The notes below the pieces were generated by a model. The model did not search any database. It was given only the letters and a program-made list of their open reading frames with translations, and was not told the origin of the DNA. The translations under genes and the position numbers were made by a program. A stretch of 64,000 bases of DNA from Fibrobacterota bacterium (GTDB lineage Bacteria; Fibrobacterota; Fibrobacteria; UBA11236), in contig JAYUVP010000098.1 of NCBI GenBank assembly GCA_043753995.1, positions 52,708 to 116,707 on the forward strand, given 5' to 3'. This document shows positions 37,128 to 42,837 of this stretch, piece by piece; within the stretch, counting starts at the first letter, position 1; each line of letters opens with the position of its first letter.

Positions 37128-37490
37128 TCACCGAAATTTCAAATAAACCACGATAATGCCCACCAGAAAAGCTGCCAACAATACCCACACCAAAGGCCTT
37201 TCCTGGCCTGTCGTGTGCACCACGGTTTTGCCTTGATATTCGCTGCTGCGCGAGCCAAGATTTTTTCCATGAAGTCGCCGAGCTTTTTGAACGTGCTCGA
37301 TTCGGCGCGGCGGTCTTCGATTTATTTTCGCCACCAAATGCTTGAGCCGGCGCAAAGTTCGCGGCGCGAAGGCGGCATGGCCGCCGTTTTTGTCGGAGCC
37401 CCAGTTGGGCTCGCTATTCAGATGAGCCGATATGACTTGATTCAAAGTGCCCACAAAAGGCGGACGCCCGAGAATCAATTCAAAATGATT
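37128..37490 (-). pseudogene. Degraded 3' fragment of a Ser/Thr kinase homologous to 39986..41068
   Basis: ELILGRPPFVGTLNQVISAHL and KNLGSRSSEYQGKTVVHTTG..LVWVLLAAFLVG match the kinase C-terminus. Internal deletions and frameshifts. Confidence 0.9.
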
Positions 37491-37527: not shown

Positions 37528-39714
37528 TCAGAAGCGGTATGTTGCCGATTTGAGACCGGTCTCGATTCGGATATAGTAAGAGCCATTTCCGAGTCGGGAT
37601 AGCGGGATATGATATTTAGTCGCGGGCAATGCATCGAGATATTTTTCGGCAAGGCGGCCTTGTGCGTCGAAAATGGAAATTCCGCTCAGGTAATTCGGTG
37701 GAATAACGCTGACTATCAGGGTCTTACCATCGATTCGGATCATCGGTTCGGCCGTTTTTGGATGGGTTGTTGCATGAACGACAATGCGGGGTCCCCCATA
37801 TTCGTAAGCACCTATGTCTATGGAACGGCCGAAAACGCGTTTATTCCCTTCAAGATCGGCACTGCTGGGCATGGTGTCGTTTGTTTCGACGATACCGGAG
37901 TCGATTGCCGGTGAATTTTTCAACAAATGGAAATCACCTGCGTTGGGATTCGCGAAAAGCGATTCTCCGCTCAGACAGCGGGTGAAATAGACGTGGTTGG
38001 TCGAATCGGCTTTGATGGATCCGAGACTGTCCATGAATGCGCAGTTCGTCGATGAAATGCCCGTGGAAACCGTGCCATATTGGGTACGCGCATTCATTTG
38101 ACATCCGCGGGCAATCGTGCAGTTGCGTAGATAGCCCAGGCTGGGGTAGTTATTCTGCCAGCCATTTGTCGTGAAATTGGTGGAATCGGTAAACAACGTG
38201 TTTTGATAACTGAAACTCGATCCTGACTCAGCGGAGGTGACTGAGTTCCCATTGACGATGGAGTTTGTGATCCGGGTATTGCCGTCATCGATAAAAAAGG
38301 CGGGCGCATTATTTTGGCCGGTGCCAAAGCGGCAGTTTGAAAAGATGACGGCCCCGGTTGTATGAATGGGTATGGAATTATCGGGTCCGCCACTCACTCG
38401 CGCGTAGGAAACCGAGCCATTTTTAATCTTCAATCCGTTAAACGCTTTGGTCTTGTCGATCGGGGAAAAAAGGATGGAATCCCGTTGCGTACCCTGTGCA
38501 TCCAAGAGTTGACAACTGAGGCTTGAAGATTCCTTCATATCAAAAGAAGTTCCGGGCATCACGAGGAGTTCATTGGCGATCACGGCATCCTGAATCGTGA
38601 TGTGCCCGTAAACGCCGAAACTGGCATCGCTTTGCGTGCCCGAGAGAGTCGTATCATGGTAGACAGGCATGTCGCGTTCCCAGTCCGCGCCATTGGCCGA
38701 GGTCGCGATAAGTCCTTTGTAGCCGACCGCGACGAACCGTGAACCATTCCAGCAAATACTCGTGATCCCTTCCGCAAAACCTTCGGATACTTTCGACAAT
38801 GTCGATGCGCCACTCATGAATTTATACACTGGCGCATAGGATCCTCTGCCGACAATAAGCGAAAACGAAGGCAGGCAAATGGCGTCCTGCATACGAAAGC
38901 TATAATCCGGGCTCGCCTTGGTTTCGGTCACCGATGTGTCGGAGATTTGAACCATCGCGAGCAACGGATCCCATCGGTCGGTTCCCCATCCGGAGGAATG
39001 GATGCCAATGTTTTTAATGATGGTTTTTCCCGAAACTTTTTTCTTGTAGCATGTCTGTTCCGTGTACAGGTAGTTGGTTGGGGACGGCACATAATCGAAA
39101 TTGAAGTTCCATTTTTTCCCATCCCGCGAAAGGGCCGTCGCATCGCCACTGACTGCCACCAGCATGCTTCCCGTCCAGAATGCCGTGTCCAAGGCACTAC
39201 TCGTTTCGATTTGGGTGGTGTCCCAGGCGACATCGTTTGCCGTTGAGAGTATATAGGAGTTAATGCGGGTCCCGAAATAATTCAGGCTGAGGGCACCCAA
39301 AGCAACGATCCGATCCGGCGTGCCGGAAAGAAATCCCAACCGCGGAACATTCCCGGTGACGGTATCGGCAATCATCGGTTTCCAGACCACGGCGCCATTG
39401 TGCGTAAGCTGATTCGCGGAATTTTTATTAACGGTTATGGGACTAAGAGTGTATCCTGAAGGGGTAACGGACGGGGGAAATTTGTATTCATCGATATTCT
39501 GTACCCCGTTCGCCCTCGAGCCCGTATAGGCACTCCAATTTTTCCCATCCAAAGACGAGTAGGCATGATTCGAAGAATCGGACGCGATGAATATCCTTTG
39601 AACGGGATCCCATTGCACCAGTTTGAGGTCGAAAGTCGTCGGCCGCAAAAACCAAGCGGATGCAGGCAAACAGAGAAGTGCAATCAGACCCGAAAGTCGG
39701 TTGAAGAATGACAT
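37528..39714 (-). CDS. Secreted protein: BNR/YVTN-like repeats, beta-helix region, choice-of-anchor-Q-like motif, T9SS-like tail
   Basis: SLDGKNW/SRDGKKW/SANGADW; DFHLLKNSPAIDSG..DIGAYE; IFDAQGRL..GSYYIRI. Confidence 0.8.
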   Translation of the reverse strand: MSFFNRLSGLIALLCLPASAWFLRPTTFDLKLVQWDPVQRIFIASDSSNHAYSSLDGKNWSAYTGSRANGVQNIDEYKFPPSVTPSGYTLSPITVNKNSANQLTHNGAVVWKPMIADTVTGNVPRLGFLSGTPDRIVALGALSLNYFGTRINSYILSTANDVAWDTTQIETSSALDTAFWTGSMLVAVSGDATALSRDGKKWNFNFDYVPSPTNYLYTEQTCYKKKVSGKTIIKNIGIHSSGWGTDRWDPLLAMVQISDTSVTETKASPDYSFRMQDAICLPSFSLIVGRGSYAPVYKFMSGASTLSKVSEGFAEGITSICWNGSRFVAVGYKGLIATSANGADWERDMPVYHDTTLSGTQSDASFGVYGHITIQDAVIANELLVMPGTSFDMKESSSLSCQLLDAQGTQRDSILFSPIDKTKAFNGLKIKNGSVSYARVSGGPDNSIPIHTTGAVIFSNCRFGTGQNNAPAFFIDDGNTRITNSIVNGNSVTSAESGSSFSYQNTLFTDSTNFTTNGWQNNYPSLGYLRNCTIARGCQMNARTQYGTVSTGISSTNCAFMDSLGSIKADSTNHVYFTRCLSGESLFANPNAGDFHLLKNSPAIDSGIVETNDTMPSSADLEGNKRVFGRSIDIGAYEYGGPRIVVHATTHPKTAEPMIRIDGKTLIVSVIPPNYLSGISIFDAQGRLAEKYLDALPATKYHIPLSRLGNGSYYIRIETGLKSATYRF

Positions 39715-39877
39715 CGGCAATGTCCTTTTTGTAATGCGGAAACCTCAATTAGAAATATTTAAGTAATTGGTCCGGTTTATATCATTAAAAAAGATACCGT
39801 TCCCAAGCTCGACACCACCAATCCCGCTGATGGGGCTATGACAAGTGCAGAACCTGACCAAGGACGCGGGGGATTCA

Positions 39878-39985: not shown

Positions 39986-41068
39986 TCACCGCATTTTCAA
40001 ATAAACGACGACCAAGCCCACCAGAAAAGCCGCAAGCAGCACCCACACCAAAAATCTTTCGCGTCCCGTGGTATGTACCACGGTTTTTCCTTGGTATTCG
40101 CTGGTGCGCGAGCCGAGATTCTTTTCCATGAATTCGCCGAGCTTTTTGAAAGTGCTCGAGTCGACGAGATTTTCGGCGCGGCGTAGGCTTTCGCTGCCGG
40201 GGCCGACGGGGGCGAGCCCGCGAATTTCGCGCAGGCGTATTTGCACGAGCTCAACCACATCGCGGCAAGAGGCGGGGCGATCTTCGGCTTTTTTAGAGAG
40301 AAGATGTTTTAGCAAGCGCAAGGTACCAGGCGTAAAGGCGATATGAGATCCGTTTTTGTCGGCCCCCCAATTCGGCTCAGTATGCAAATGGGCTGAAATC
40401 ACTTGATTCAAGGTGCCCGTATAAGGCGGACGGCCCAGAATCAATTCATAGAGAATGACGCCGAGAGAATAAATATCTGAAGCGGGGCCAATGGCCTTGC
40501 CATGCGTGAAGCATTCGGGTGCCATGTAGGTGGGCGTGCCCAGCGTGGTGTCGGCCGCCGTCAAGTCGATTTGGGTCATGTCCTTGGCGAGGCCGAGATC
40601 CGAAACCTTGAGCTTGCCTTCCTTGGTCACGAGAATATTGGCGGGCTTGAGATCGCGATGCAGGATTTGTTGGCTATGCGCCACCTGCATGGACGAGGCG
40701 ACATGGCCAATGATTTTCAGCGCTAACTCCTCATGCACGGGACCGGAGCGGCGCAAGTATTCCATCAGGGAATGGCCGCCGACGAATTCCATCACCAGAT
40801 AAAGCAGGCCCATGTCTTCGCCGAAGTCGAGCACGCGCACAATGCCCTCGTGATTGAGGCGTGCGGCCATTTGCGCTTCGCGGCGAAAACGATCACGAAA
40901 AGAAGTCATTTGCGAAGCGCCGGGCCCATGGGGCTGGGTGCGCAAGACCTTCACCGCCACGGGAATGCCGAGGGTTTGGTGCATGCCTTTATAGACTTGC
41001 GAAGACGAACCCTCGCCAATCAGATTTTCGAGATAGCAACGGCCGAGAACTTTTCCAGTGAGCAGCAT
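39986..41068 (-). CDS. Hanks-type Ser/Thr protein kinase with C-terminal membrane anchor
   Basis: GEGSSSQV, VAVK, HRDLKPAN, DLG, GTPTYMAPE, SDIYSLG; terminal hydrophobic helix. Confidence 0.95.
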   Translation of the reverse strand: MLLTGKVLGRCYLENLIGEGSSSQVYKGMHQTLGIPVAVKVLRTQPHGPGASQMTSFRDRFRREAQMAARLNHEGIVRVLDFGEDMGLLYLVMEFVGGHSLMEYLRRSGPVHEELALKIIGHVASSMQVAHSQQILHRDLKPANILVTKEGKLKVSDLGLAKDMTQIDLTAADTTLGTPTYMAPECFTHGKAIGPASDIYSLGVILYELILGRPPYTGTLNQVISAHLHTEPNWGADKNGSHIAFTPGTLRLLKHLLSKKAEDRPASCRDVVELVQIRLREIRGLAPVGPGSESLRRAENLVDSSTFKKLGEFMEKNLGSRTSEYQGKTVVHTTGRERFLVWVLLAAFLVGLVVVYLKMR

Positions 41069-41071
41069 GTT

Positions 41072-42772
41072 TTAGGCTTGTCCCGCTTGGACTTGGGCAT
41101 TTGCCGGGGAGGGCAAGGTGCGCGTATTGCGGAAAAGCGAAGAACCCAGATTGCGCAATTGATCCCAGTAATAGGTCATATTGGTGCTACCCGTTTGCAT
41201 CTCCACCAATTTTTCCTTCACATTTTCCAGGACTTCGTCGGCTAGCGCGGAATTGCCATCGGACCAAGCCGCGCGCATGCGCAAATCTTTTTCCACTTTA
41301 TCGATTTTCCGGGACACCGCTTCAAGCCTCTGGGTTTGGAGCTTATTCTCTTCATGACAGCGCTGTATCAAGGTGAAAATCTGATCGGCGTCTTGATTGA
41401 GCCAGCCGCGGACCTGCTCGATTTCTTCGCGCTCCTTTTCGAGTTTGCGGCTCCAGCCTTCGATGGCTTGCACCAAGCGAAGATATTCCCCCGCATCGGC
41501 TTCGTCGGGGCGGCGTAGATCGCCGGCATTGGTGGAGCGCGCTATCACATAGCCCACCATTTCATCGACGGGGCTGCGCACCTGATGCTCCGAATAATTG
41601 AGTCCCACGGTCTCTTCGTCGGCGGTGACGCGCAGGGGAGAAATGCGTCCGATAATGGACCAGCATAAATAGCCCACGAGAAAGGCCCACAAAAAGCAAA
41701 CCCCCGCGCCGATCAATTGCGTCATGACCAAACCGGATCGCGTGAGCGTGATTCCCAATTCCTGCGAAGTGGAAACGAGATAGCTATTGGGAGCGAAAAT
41801 GCCGGTCAGCAAAATACCGGTAATGCCCGCCGCCCCATGCACCGGAACCGCGCCCACGGCATCGTCCAGCTTGGCCAAAAGCAATAATCGGTCGGCGAAA
41901 TAAAAGGCGAGGCCCCCGGCAGCGCCAATGAGGGCCGAAGCCGCCGGCGAAACAATGTCGGCGCAAGCGGTGATGGCCACCAAGCCCGCCAAAATGCCAT
42001 TCATGATAGTTGAAGCGCCGCTAATGCCTTGCAAAGCCCAACCGAAAAGCAAGCAGGCCAGACCTCCGAAGACACCGCCGAAAACCGTATTCAAAACGAT
42101 GGTGCCGGTATGCGCGCCGAAGGGAGCCGAACCGCCATTAAAGCCTATCCATCCGAAAAACAAAATGAAGGTTCCCAAGGCCACCATAGGCACATCGGCC
42201 GCATGAATATCGACCACCTTGCCAAAGCGATCAAAGCGACCCAAGCGCGGCCCCAACTTGATAATGCCCGCCAAGGACACCGAGGCTCCCACCAAATGCA
42301 CCACGGAAGAGCCGGCAAAGTCATGAAAACCCATGCGATGCAGCCAGCCTTCGCTATTCCATACCCAATGTCCGTATATCGGATAAATGATCAAGGAAAG
42401 CGCGCCCGAGCCCAGTATATAAGGCAGAAAACGCAGGCGCTCCGCCATGGCACCCGAAACTATGGTGGCAGCCGTGCCGCAAAACACCAATTGATATAAG
42501 AAGGGAAAGCTGTCGGCCTCGGTCAGGCCTTTAAGAAAAAAGATCGGTTTACCGACAAATCCGGTGAGTCCGTCGATGCCAAACATCATGGCATAACCGA
42601 CCAAATAAAAGCAGAAAGTGGCGACGAGGAAATCGACCACATTTTTCAGCGCCACATTGATGCTGTTCTTATGTCTTACGGAGCCTGCTTCCAGGCAGCA
42701 AAACCCTGCCTGCATGAAAAAAACCAGGCCGGTACATGTGAGCAGCCACATGTTCTTGATATCGGTTTCCAT
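41072..42772 (-). CDS. amt: Ammonium transporter (Amt) with ~165-aa cytoplasmic helical extension
   Basis: FFMQAGF, SGAMAER, HWVW, DFAGSSVVH, GWIGFNGGS, DDAVGAVPVHG, GLNYSEH, then a charged heptad-rich tail. Confidence 0.95.
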   Translation of the reverse strand: METDIKNMWLLTCTGLVFFMQAGFCCLEAGSVRHKNSINVALKNVVDFLVATFCFYLVGYAMMFGIDGLTGFVGKPIFFLKGLTEADSFPFLYQLVFCGTAATIVSGAMAERLRFLPYILGSGALSLIIYPIYGHWVWNSEGWLHRMGFHDFAGSSVVHLVGASVSLAGIIKLGPRLGRFDRFGKVVDIHAADVPMVALGTFILFFGWIGFNGGSAPFGAHTGTIVLNTVFGGVFGGLACLLFGWALQGISGASTIMNGILAGLVAITACADIVSPAASALIGAAGGLAFYFADRLLLLAKLDDAVGAVPVHGAAGITGILLTGIFAPNSYLVSTSQELGITLTRSGLVMTQLIGAGVCFLWAFLVGYLCWSIIGRISPLRVTADEETVGLNYSEHQVRSPVDEMVGYVIARSTNAGDLRRPDEADAGEYLRLVQAIEGWSRKLEKEREEIEQVRGWLNQDADQIFTLIQRCHEENKLQTQRLEAVSRKIDKVEKDLRMRAAWSDGNSALADEVLENVKEKLVEMQTGSTNMTYYWDQLRNLGSSLFRNTRTLPSPANAQVQAGQA

Positions 42773-42821
42773 AACCCTCGCTAGTTCGCCGTCCCTGGCT
42801 GACTCTTGGAGCGAGAATCAA

Positions 42822-42837
42822 AGCAAATGGCAGGCCG
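42822..42837 (-). promoter_or_regulatory. Putative sigma54 (-24/-12) promoter of the amt-kinase operon
   Basis: Minus strand CGGCCTGCCATTTGCT = GG-N10-GC with TTGCT, 50 nt upstream of the amt ATG. Confidence 0.45.

Follow-up and report, generated by a model that had tools for sequence, protein, structure and literature searches.

What does an ammonium transporter-like protein do beside a serine/threonine kinase that has no sensor of its own? The question is raised by a locus in a stretch of 64,000 nucleotides from a Fibrobacterota bacterium (assembly GCA_043753995.1, contig JAYUVP010000098.1, positions 52,708 to 116,707), here called the window, in which an amt gene is followed directly, on the same strand, by a gene for a Hanks-type Ser/Thr kinase. 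A preliminary description of this DNA had placed the two genes 3 nt apart, as the junction confirms, and had proposed either a split transceptor or an Amt protein gated by the kinase. Our analysis supports the first part of this proposal and keeps kinase gating as a rival. A split ammonium receptor with a Ser/Thr-kinase output is the best reading of the locus, one that we place just on the probable side. The elements concerned are:

41072..42772, minus strand: amt gene, an open reading frame (ORF) of 566 aa, with its stop codon at 41072-41074
41069..41071, minus strand: spacer of 3 nt from the amt stop (TAA) to the kinase start (ATG), junction TAA-AAC-ATG
39986..41068, minus strand: Hanks-type Ser/Thr kinase gene, an ORF of 360 aa
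41582..42772, minus strand: Amt-like membrane module of 11 helices, aa 1-397, putatively of the receptor (AmR) type by Pfam, PDB matches and signature

The membrane module matches PF00909 [Ammonium_transp] over aa 8-397 (E 4e-103, 345.6 bits against a cut-off of 23.2) and TIGR00836 (373.7 bits against 343.3), and stays below the cut-off of the AmtB-type model NF007947 (152 bits against 657). Its closest relative in the PDB by phmmer is Sd-Amt1 [3e-94, 8qj3/8qj4/8qpf], aligned over aa 3-402, followed by Ks-Amt5 [4e-79, 6eu6]; Af-Amt1 (1e-48) and AmtB and Mep2 (about 1e-36 to 1e-31) are weaker matches. The module was first described as keeping both pore histidines and the W/F/S sites, and the alignments agree: the twin His are H159 and H312, the latter aligned to Sd-Amt1 His-323, and F97, W138, F211 and S215, which we take to be F107, W148, F215 and S219 of AmtB, show no variation in 19 family members.

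Pfluger et al. (2024; PMC11152129) described a pocket for two ammonium ions (N1/N2), which lies laterally below the twin His, and proposed the AmR signature QX6EX15NX2D[F/T]X54-60TX2[S/T]. A regular-expression search shows that the window Amt fits this signature exactly (Q21, E28, N44, D47, F48, T103 and S106). The residues listed for its N1/N2 site are Q21, E28, K43, N44, D47, F48, T103, S106, Y118 and N258, of which K43, Y118 and N258 align to the switch Lys-44, to Tyr-119 and to the exit-narrowing Asn-269 of Sd-Amt1. All 29 family proteins compared have E28, K43, N44, S106, N258 and the twin His; T103 and Y118 are present in 28.

The second Amt of this genome, on contig C64, has a signal peptide, no tail and the pore residues, and carries no N1/N2 ligands: Tyr stands at position 28 and Ser at 258, with Q, I and S at the positions of K43, Y118 and N258. 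These residues agree with the published description of assimilatory transporters (PMC11152129). The window Amt, by its nearest solved relatives and its N1/N2 signature, is assigned to the receptor class. Because the C64 protein has residues of the assimilatory type and the window protein those of the receptor type, the genome appears to hold one transporter-type and one receptor-type Amt, like S. denitrificans.

The kinase gene specifies three recognizable segments:

40271..41029, minus strand: Hanks-type Ser/Thr kinase catalytic domain, aa 14-266 (Pfam Pkinase)
40055..40159, minus strand: conserved juxtamembrane segment, aa 304-338, a family hallmark from the ortholog alignment
39998..40054, minus strand: putative C-terminal transmembrane (TM) anchor, aa 339-357, a single hydrophobic 19-mer

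With E 1e-55 and 189.5 bits (cut-off 31.7) the Pkinase match extends over aa 14-266, and G18/G20, K40, E64, H137-R138-D139, D157-L158-G159 and A183-P184-E185 are invariant in the orthologs. The PknB/Stk1 PASTA kinase model NF033483 aligns over aa 9-297 (E 1e-72) and scores 245.6 bits where 450 are required; the match stops at position 287 of the 563 in the profile, and there are no PASTA sensor repeats in the kinase. The TM helix, called from hydropathy alone, is the only 19-residue hydrophobic window of the protein (mean Kyte-Doolittle value 2.87) and just 3 residues follow it, in keeping with the earlier remark that the kinase ends at its TM helix and has no outside sensor. We predict from its sequence that the kinase is tail-anchored, with neither an extracytoplasmic domain nor a sensor domain of its own. 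Some distant members of the family have a short proline-rich stretch after the helix, never a folded sensor domain. The juxtamembrane segment, which reads SSTF..L..FMEKNLG...SEYQG..V.HTTGRER, contains the start of the hallmark G..[VI].HTT..ER...W, in which G327, H332, T333, T334, E337, R338 and W342 are each kept in at least 29 of 30 distinct amt-kinase pairs. This segment is a candidate docking or phospho-site region.

The main rival explanation is that the Amt is a working transporter and that the kinase replaces GlnK, phosphorylating the C-terminal region or tail so as to switch uptake. We regard this as possible but rather unlikely. The window Amt does keep all of the transporter pore residues, the cluster of Amts bearing the AmR signature also holds true transporters (PMC11152129), and C-terminal phosphorylation is an established control in plants and fungi (PMC13745463). 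As had been stated at the outset, no glnK/PII gene adjoins amt: none was found near the gene in the window region or in the flanks of the related loci, and the genome has one PII gene only, its single PF00543 match lying on contig C64 some 13 kb from the second amt. The Ser of the GLNYSEH motif at the junction of module and tail (S394) is Ser or Thr in all 29 family members. This residue presumably lines up with Thr460 of the plant transporter AMT1;1.

On the other side, a canonical transporter-type Amt is already present in the genome, the nearest solved relatives of the window protein are two non-transporting receptors, and Asn258 occupies the position at which Sd-Amt1 narrows its exit. The tails have no conserved Ser or Thr other than the Ser at the junction, and that one is also present in a Thiomargarita Amt which is fused to a histidine kinase. 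Furthermore, a kinase that gates a transporter still needs an input, and this one is without a sensor domain. Under gating, feedback from the transporter itself might still supply the signal. The Amt is the only visible source of input for the kinase whether it is a receptor or a gated transporter, and both may hold together.

The remainder of the Amt protein is its tail:

41075..41581, minus strand: cytoplasmic C-terminal tail of the Amt protein, aa 398-566 (169 aa), a conserved all-helical domain
41270..41494, minus strand: long helix of the tail, aa 427-501, a predicted coiled coil (AF2, hydrophobic periodicity)

This tail starts where known receptors carry their transducer. The preliminary description had it as about 165 charged, coiled-coil-like residues with no recognizable enzyme domain. 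It contains 24 K+R and 28 D+E and no hydrophobic segment; eleven Fibrobacteria tails align with a mean column identity of 69% and many invariant residues. AlphaFold2 (AF2) models show helices as the only secondary structure, one of them some 75 residues long (aa 427-501, that is 41-115 of the tail model; 428-503 in the full-length model). Since this helix has a strong 3.5-residue hydrophobic period (hydrophobic moment 1.21 at period 3.5 against 0.28 at 3.67) and hydrophobic residues at 16 of its 22 a/d positions, it is predicted to be a coiled coil. Pfam, searched up to E 10, gave no HAMP, HisKA, HATPase or MCPsignal in the 11 tails and returned sub-threshold coiled-coil noise such as HMMR_N and TMEM120. 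Foldseek against the PDB found nothing below E 0.25, all of it helical bundles, and a profile search of the PDB had a single match, the coiled coil of TRAF2 (E 3e-4), which we read as coiled-coil likeness and not as homology. The TRAF2 coiled coil is a parallel trimer and as such would suit the Amt trimer.

Distant tails, from a second tier of Amts described below, are collinear with the window tail, and with the junction removed the two groups (13 against 72 tails) align by hhalign with a probability of 94.9 and E 4.7e-8 over 130 columns. The tail appears only on Amts: all 46 matches of a diverse-tail profile to longer proteins are PF00909 Amts.

Could this tail be a decayed or divergent signalling module, either a HAMP array or the dimerization helices of a histidine kinase, with the kinase gene merely co-transcribed? 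An ESM Atlas feature search found HAMP-containing clusters at 0.82-0.88, which is below the 0.9 level and therefore a lead only; Sd-Amt1 has a HAMP domain at the same position (PMC11152129); and the Thiomargarita Amt-HisKA-HATPase fusion has the same GLNYSEH junction as the window Amt. However, HAMP, HisKA and MCP matches are absent from all 11 tails even at E 10, and neither structural search returned a signalling module. The tail is also under clear constraint, being kept at full length in all tiers, and its presence tracks that of the kinase one to one, which mere co-transcription does not explain. Because the tail is itself conserved and free of such matches, a decayed MCP (methyl-accepting chemotaxis protein) or histidine-kinase remnant is unsupported, and we hold this explanation to be very improbable. 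The Thiomargarita fusion (L036:2765-7589) is a protein of 783 aa with an architecture like that of Ks-Amt5, and its gene is followed by one for an MCP with HAMP domains.

How strictly are the two genes linked? Among species-representative genomes the tail was found in 10 of the 296 from the phylum, all of them in the window's own family, where this amounts to 10 of 32 genomes and 4 of 6 genera, one genome having two copies. The C-terminal 93 aa of the kinase (linker, juxtamembrane motif and TM helix) occur in these 10 of the 32 family genomes and in no others, on the same contigs, the sole additional match being a remnant ORF in the window itself. The kinase lies directly downstream of the tailed amt at all 10 relative genome loci and is 56-62% identical to that of the window. 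The genome with two copies (G017) has two diverged amt-kinase pairs, the second with an HD_5 (HD-domain) gene that starts 12 nt after the kinase and is read from the same strand.

When 185,579 species genomes were scanned with the tail profile, nine loci were returned, seven of them titled Fibrobacteria or Fibrobacteres and probably the same loci as in the family set, together with a partial match to the Thiomargarita fusion. One locus (L033), in a record titled "uncultured Bifidobacteriales bacterium", is of the Fibrobacteria-family type and is probably the locus of G008, a genome placed in the window's own family; its label looks wrong. Against 1.84 billion representatives the same profile had three clusters below 1e-30 and three weak tailed-Amt fragments. 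The Fibrobacteria tail profile alone thus made the family look tiny; its breadth came from a search with the Amt module. Among the best 120 matches of that search the Fibrobacteria proteins come first, then a second tier at 50-57% identity, in which 60 of 75 proteins have more than 120 residues after the junction motif. In each of these 120 matches PF00909 is the sole Pfam family present, and two of the second-tier clusters bear Planctomycetota names.

At the metagenome loci which carry tailed Amts, a kinase collinear with that of the window is found directly downstream in 25 of 25 cases, 22 with distant tails and three of the Fibrobacteria type. Identity to the window kinase is 39-43% near full length for the complete distant loci and 57-83% for the three others; one contig ends 37 codons into the kinase and another starts inside the tail. 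Some of these loci are near-duplicates, leaving 30 distinct pairs including the window. The pair is therefore present at all 35 related loci examined outside the window, 10 from genomes and 25 from metagenomes, and the neighbourhood survey shows the arrangement to be conserved. At 29 of the 32 visible junctions (those of the metagenome loci and of nine genome loci, with starts assigned by a simple rule) the genes share 1, 4 or 8 nt; gaps of 22-53 nt separate them at the remaining three. Pairwise identities among the Amts correlate with those among the kinases (r = 0.97) over the 435 pairs of the 30 distinct loci, which, although the pairs are non-independent, shows on the level of sequence that the two genes are inherited together. 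In two loci (L012 and L034) a 912-aa ORF appeared to fuse amt and kinase; it was rejected as an alternative frame over amt in G+C-rich DNA, the amt frame itself ending in a stop.

Since the 5.2 Mb genome has 20 Pkinase matches, a kinase neighbour is not rare and a single such adjacency could be chance, but recurrence at every one of the 35 loci cannot, and with strong family matches for both ORFs and a stop/start overlap at most junctions it is scarcely credible that the adjacency has no functional meaning or that the ORFs were mis-called.

Prediction of a complex between the full Amt and the full kinase gave a median score of 0.48 (runs of 0.51, 0.46 and 0.48) against 0.00 for the best of three controls; the runs have at least 91% of their contacts in common, with a partner pLDDT (predicted local distance difference test) of at least 70. 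In the calibration 116 of 157 solved complexes and 2 of 215 mismatched pairs reached the mark; no more than 18 of the 157 did so at scores of 0.60 or below, where both of the passing mismatches also lie; since our own alignments were used these counts hold only roughly. We know of no solved complex of an Amt with a Hanks-type kinase, so recall of a known structure by the prediction is unlikely. The interaction suggested at the outset thus lies above the mark, and the prediction lends weak support to an association of Amt and kinase.

What has been observed or computed is which domains the two proteins contain, that the Amt has receptor-type residues, that the genes strictly co-occur and overlap, and that the tails are homologous; ammonium binding and the direction and output of signalling we infer as follows. 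The Amt-like protein would form the usual trimer in the membrane. Judging from the conserved residues, NH4+ would be led past the twin His into the lateral N1/N2 pocket, instead of or besides being transported. Occupancy of the pocket would move the C-terminal end of the Amt module, as it does in the known receptors, and here the movement would pass onward into the coiled-coil tail. The kinase, made from the translationally coupled downstream gene, would be anchored in the same membrane by its C-terminal helix and would presumably dock on the assembly of Amt and tail. Binding of ammonium may then alter how the bound kinases are held relative to each other, and with it their trans-autophosphorylation and activity; the kinase would phosphorylate cytoplasmic targets, possibly including the Amt. 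Extended to the whole family, the proposal is that bacteria of the Fibrobacteria, of Planctomycetota-labelled contigs and of further unplaced lineages sense external ammonium through a trimeric Amt-like receptor, a coiled-coil tail and a separately encoded, tail-anchored Hanks-type kinase; the chances of this wider proposal we see as evenly balanced.

Several observations weigh against a split receptor. The N2 ligand Asp47 is Asp in only 18 of the 29 family proteins, the others having Ser (5), Thr (5) or Val (1), and the replacements include most of the neighbouring genus. Plant AMT1 transporters fall in the signature-bearing cluster, which makes up 29.6% of Amts (PMC11152129), and for this reason the N1/N2 signature by itself is no proof of a pure sensor. 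Confidence in the tail model is moderate (pLDDT 70 for the tail alone, 55-72 in the full-length model), the monomer models being informative for secondary structure only, and the complex prediction passed weakly and gave no interface. No gene for a substrate, an FHA protein, a phosphatase or a regulator consistently accompanies the pair, and linkage alone gives no direction of control.

As for the surroundings of the pair, there is no conserved third gene: PP2C, FHA, PII, response regulator and amino-acid-type permease genes were absent from the 114 (67 + 47) flanking ORFs of 23 loci. The single PP2C_2 match of the genome is on contig C113. A GGDEF gene lies 1.2-2 kb upstream of amt on the opposite strand in four loci of one genus (L027, L028, L029 and L032), and Dus and MFS genes recur downstream of the pair, again within one genus only; this recurrence may be plain synteny or a link to cyclic di-GMP signalling. 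The PII gene on C64 is preceded by a gene for a 337-aa protein and followed by a 464-aa ORF which runs off the end of the locus; the second, canonical amt on that contig is likewise without an adjoining glnK.

Only in one particular, a sigma54-like site upstream of amt, did the preliminary description fail. The sequence TGGCAC stands some 148 nt before the start of amt, with no TTGC after it at N5 spacing, and there is no properly spaced -24/-12 element. The pattern TGGCAC-N5-TTGCW, with up to two mismatches, had zero matches between 29930 and 45421, and no sigma54-type element is conserved upstream of amt in nine relatives. The genome does possess rpoN. The relatives from the neighbouring genus (L027-L032) share a promoter-like TTGCCA-N17/18-TA(C/T)TAT, read in 6 of 9 loci, some 40-80 nt before amt. 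Copies of TTGCCA also stand upstream of amt in the window, one of them overlapped by TGGCAC, but no -10-like hexamer at the N17/18 spacing.

Downstream of the kinase, the 116-aa ORF at 37128..37478 (minus strand) is a remnant of that gene's 3' half. Compared with aa 209-360 of the kinase it is 54% identical overall, with a gap of 36 residues, and near-identical over the juxtamembrane motif and TM helix. Stop codons lie just upstream. Between kinase and remnant lies a 730-aa gene (37528..39720) with a weak match to a type IX secretion system (T9SS) sorting domain. The remnant suggests partial duplication or rearrangement around this gene.

No bacterial example of an Amt paired with a Hanks-type kinase was known to the preliminary description, and none was found by a full-text literature search over a limited set of papers. 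The available sections of the two receptor papers (PMC11152129 and PMC5764959) make no mention of such a pair, and the term "Pkinase" is absent from the supplements of PMC11152129. While Amt-based receptors with fused transducers are known, our results point to Amt-based receptors with a split, Ser/Thr-kinase output as new. If this is true, the window would encode the first ammonium receptor with a Ser/Thr-kinase output, and the first eukaryote-like bacterial kinase to be fed by a partner membrane protein and not by its own extracellular domain. Just two Amt-based ammonium receptors have been studied so far, both with fused transducers, and the authors of the receptor work expect many more Amt-based signalling systems (PMC11152129). 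The locus would add Ser/Thr phosphorylation as a third type of output, together with a split design, would supply one family of Hanks kinases without sensors in bacteria with an input, and would connect ammonium sensing by bacteria with the control that kinases exert on Amt/Mep proteins in plants and fungi. As a compact and strictly linked two-gene module it is suited to expression and reconstitution, so that the control of a kinase by a trimeric sensor could be tested directly, with the juxtamembrane motif and the tail as concrete targets for mutagenesis.

Of the known systems Sd-Amt1 from Shewanella denitrificans is the nearest in sequence. The window Amt agrees with it in the N1/N2 ligands, the switch Lys, the Tyr and the Asn that narrows the exit, and also starts directly with TM1; S. 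denitrificans too has a separate assimilatory Amt (PMC11152129). Sd-Amt1, however, is a fused Amt-HAMP-diguanylate cyclase (8QJ3, 8QJ4, 8QPF; PMC11152129), whereas the candidate transducer of the window is a separate gene: in place of a detectable HAMP or cyclase domain there are the 169-aa coiled-coil tail and a membrane-anchored Ser/Thr kinase. A fused transducer module, either a histidine kinase or HAMP plus diguanylate cyclase, belongs to the AmR class as so far described, and in this respect the window Amt departs from it. Ks-Amt5 of "Candidatus Kuenenia stuttgartiensis" [6EU6, PMC5764959] is an ammonium sensor histidine kinase in which the Amt C-terminus drives a protein kinase. Like it, the window system would be a trimeric sensor coupled to a type of kinase that usually works in pairs. 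The Ks-Amt5 kinase is of the histidine type and on the same chain, whereas that of the window is a Hanks-type Ser/Thr kinase with its own gene, and unlike the case of Ks-Amt5 no response regulator is found near pairs of the window type (flanking ORFs of 23 loci).

A tie between an Amt/Mep protein and a Ser/Thr kinase is shared with plants and fungi, where CIPK23 acts at Thr460 of AMT1;1 and Npr1 on Mep2 (PMC13745463), in both cases at the cytoplasmic C-terminal region; plant AMT1 also shares the N1/N2-type region (PMC11152129). Those systems are eukaryotic, with soluble kinases of unrelated architecture which are not encoded beside the transporter, and lack a long coiled-coil tail. In its layout the locus resembles AmtB-GlnK, where amt is followed by a co-transcribed regulator that works at the cytoplasmic face, as is established there and as we propose here; the partner is a kinase and not PII, and the Amt is of the putative receptor type and not of the AmtB type. 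With PknB/Stk1 the kinase shares the catalytic domain and a topology of cytoplasmic kinase, juxtamembrane linker and single TM helix, and differs in having no extracellular PASTA or other sensor and in the family-specific juxtamembrane motif G..V.HTT..ER...W.

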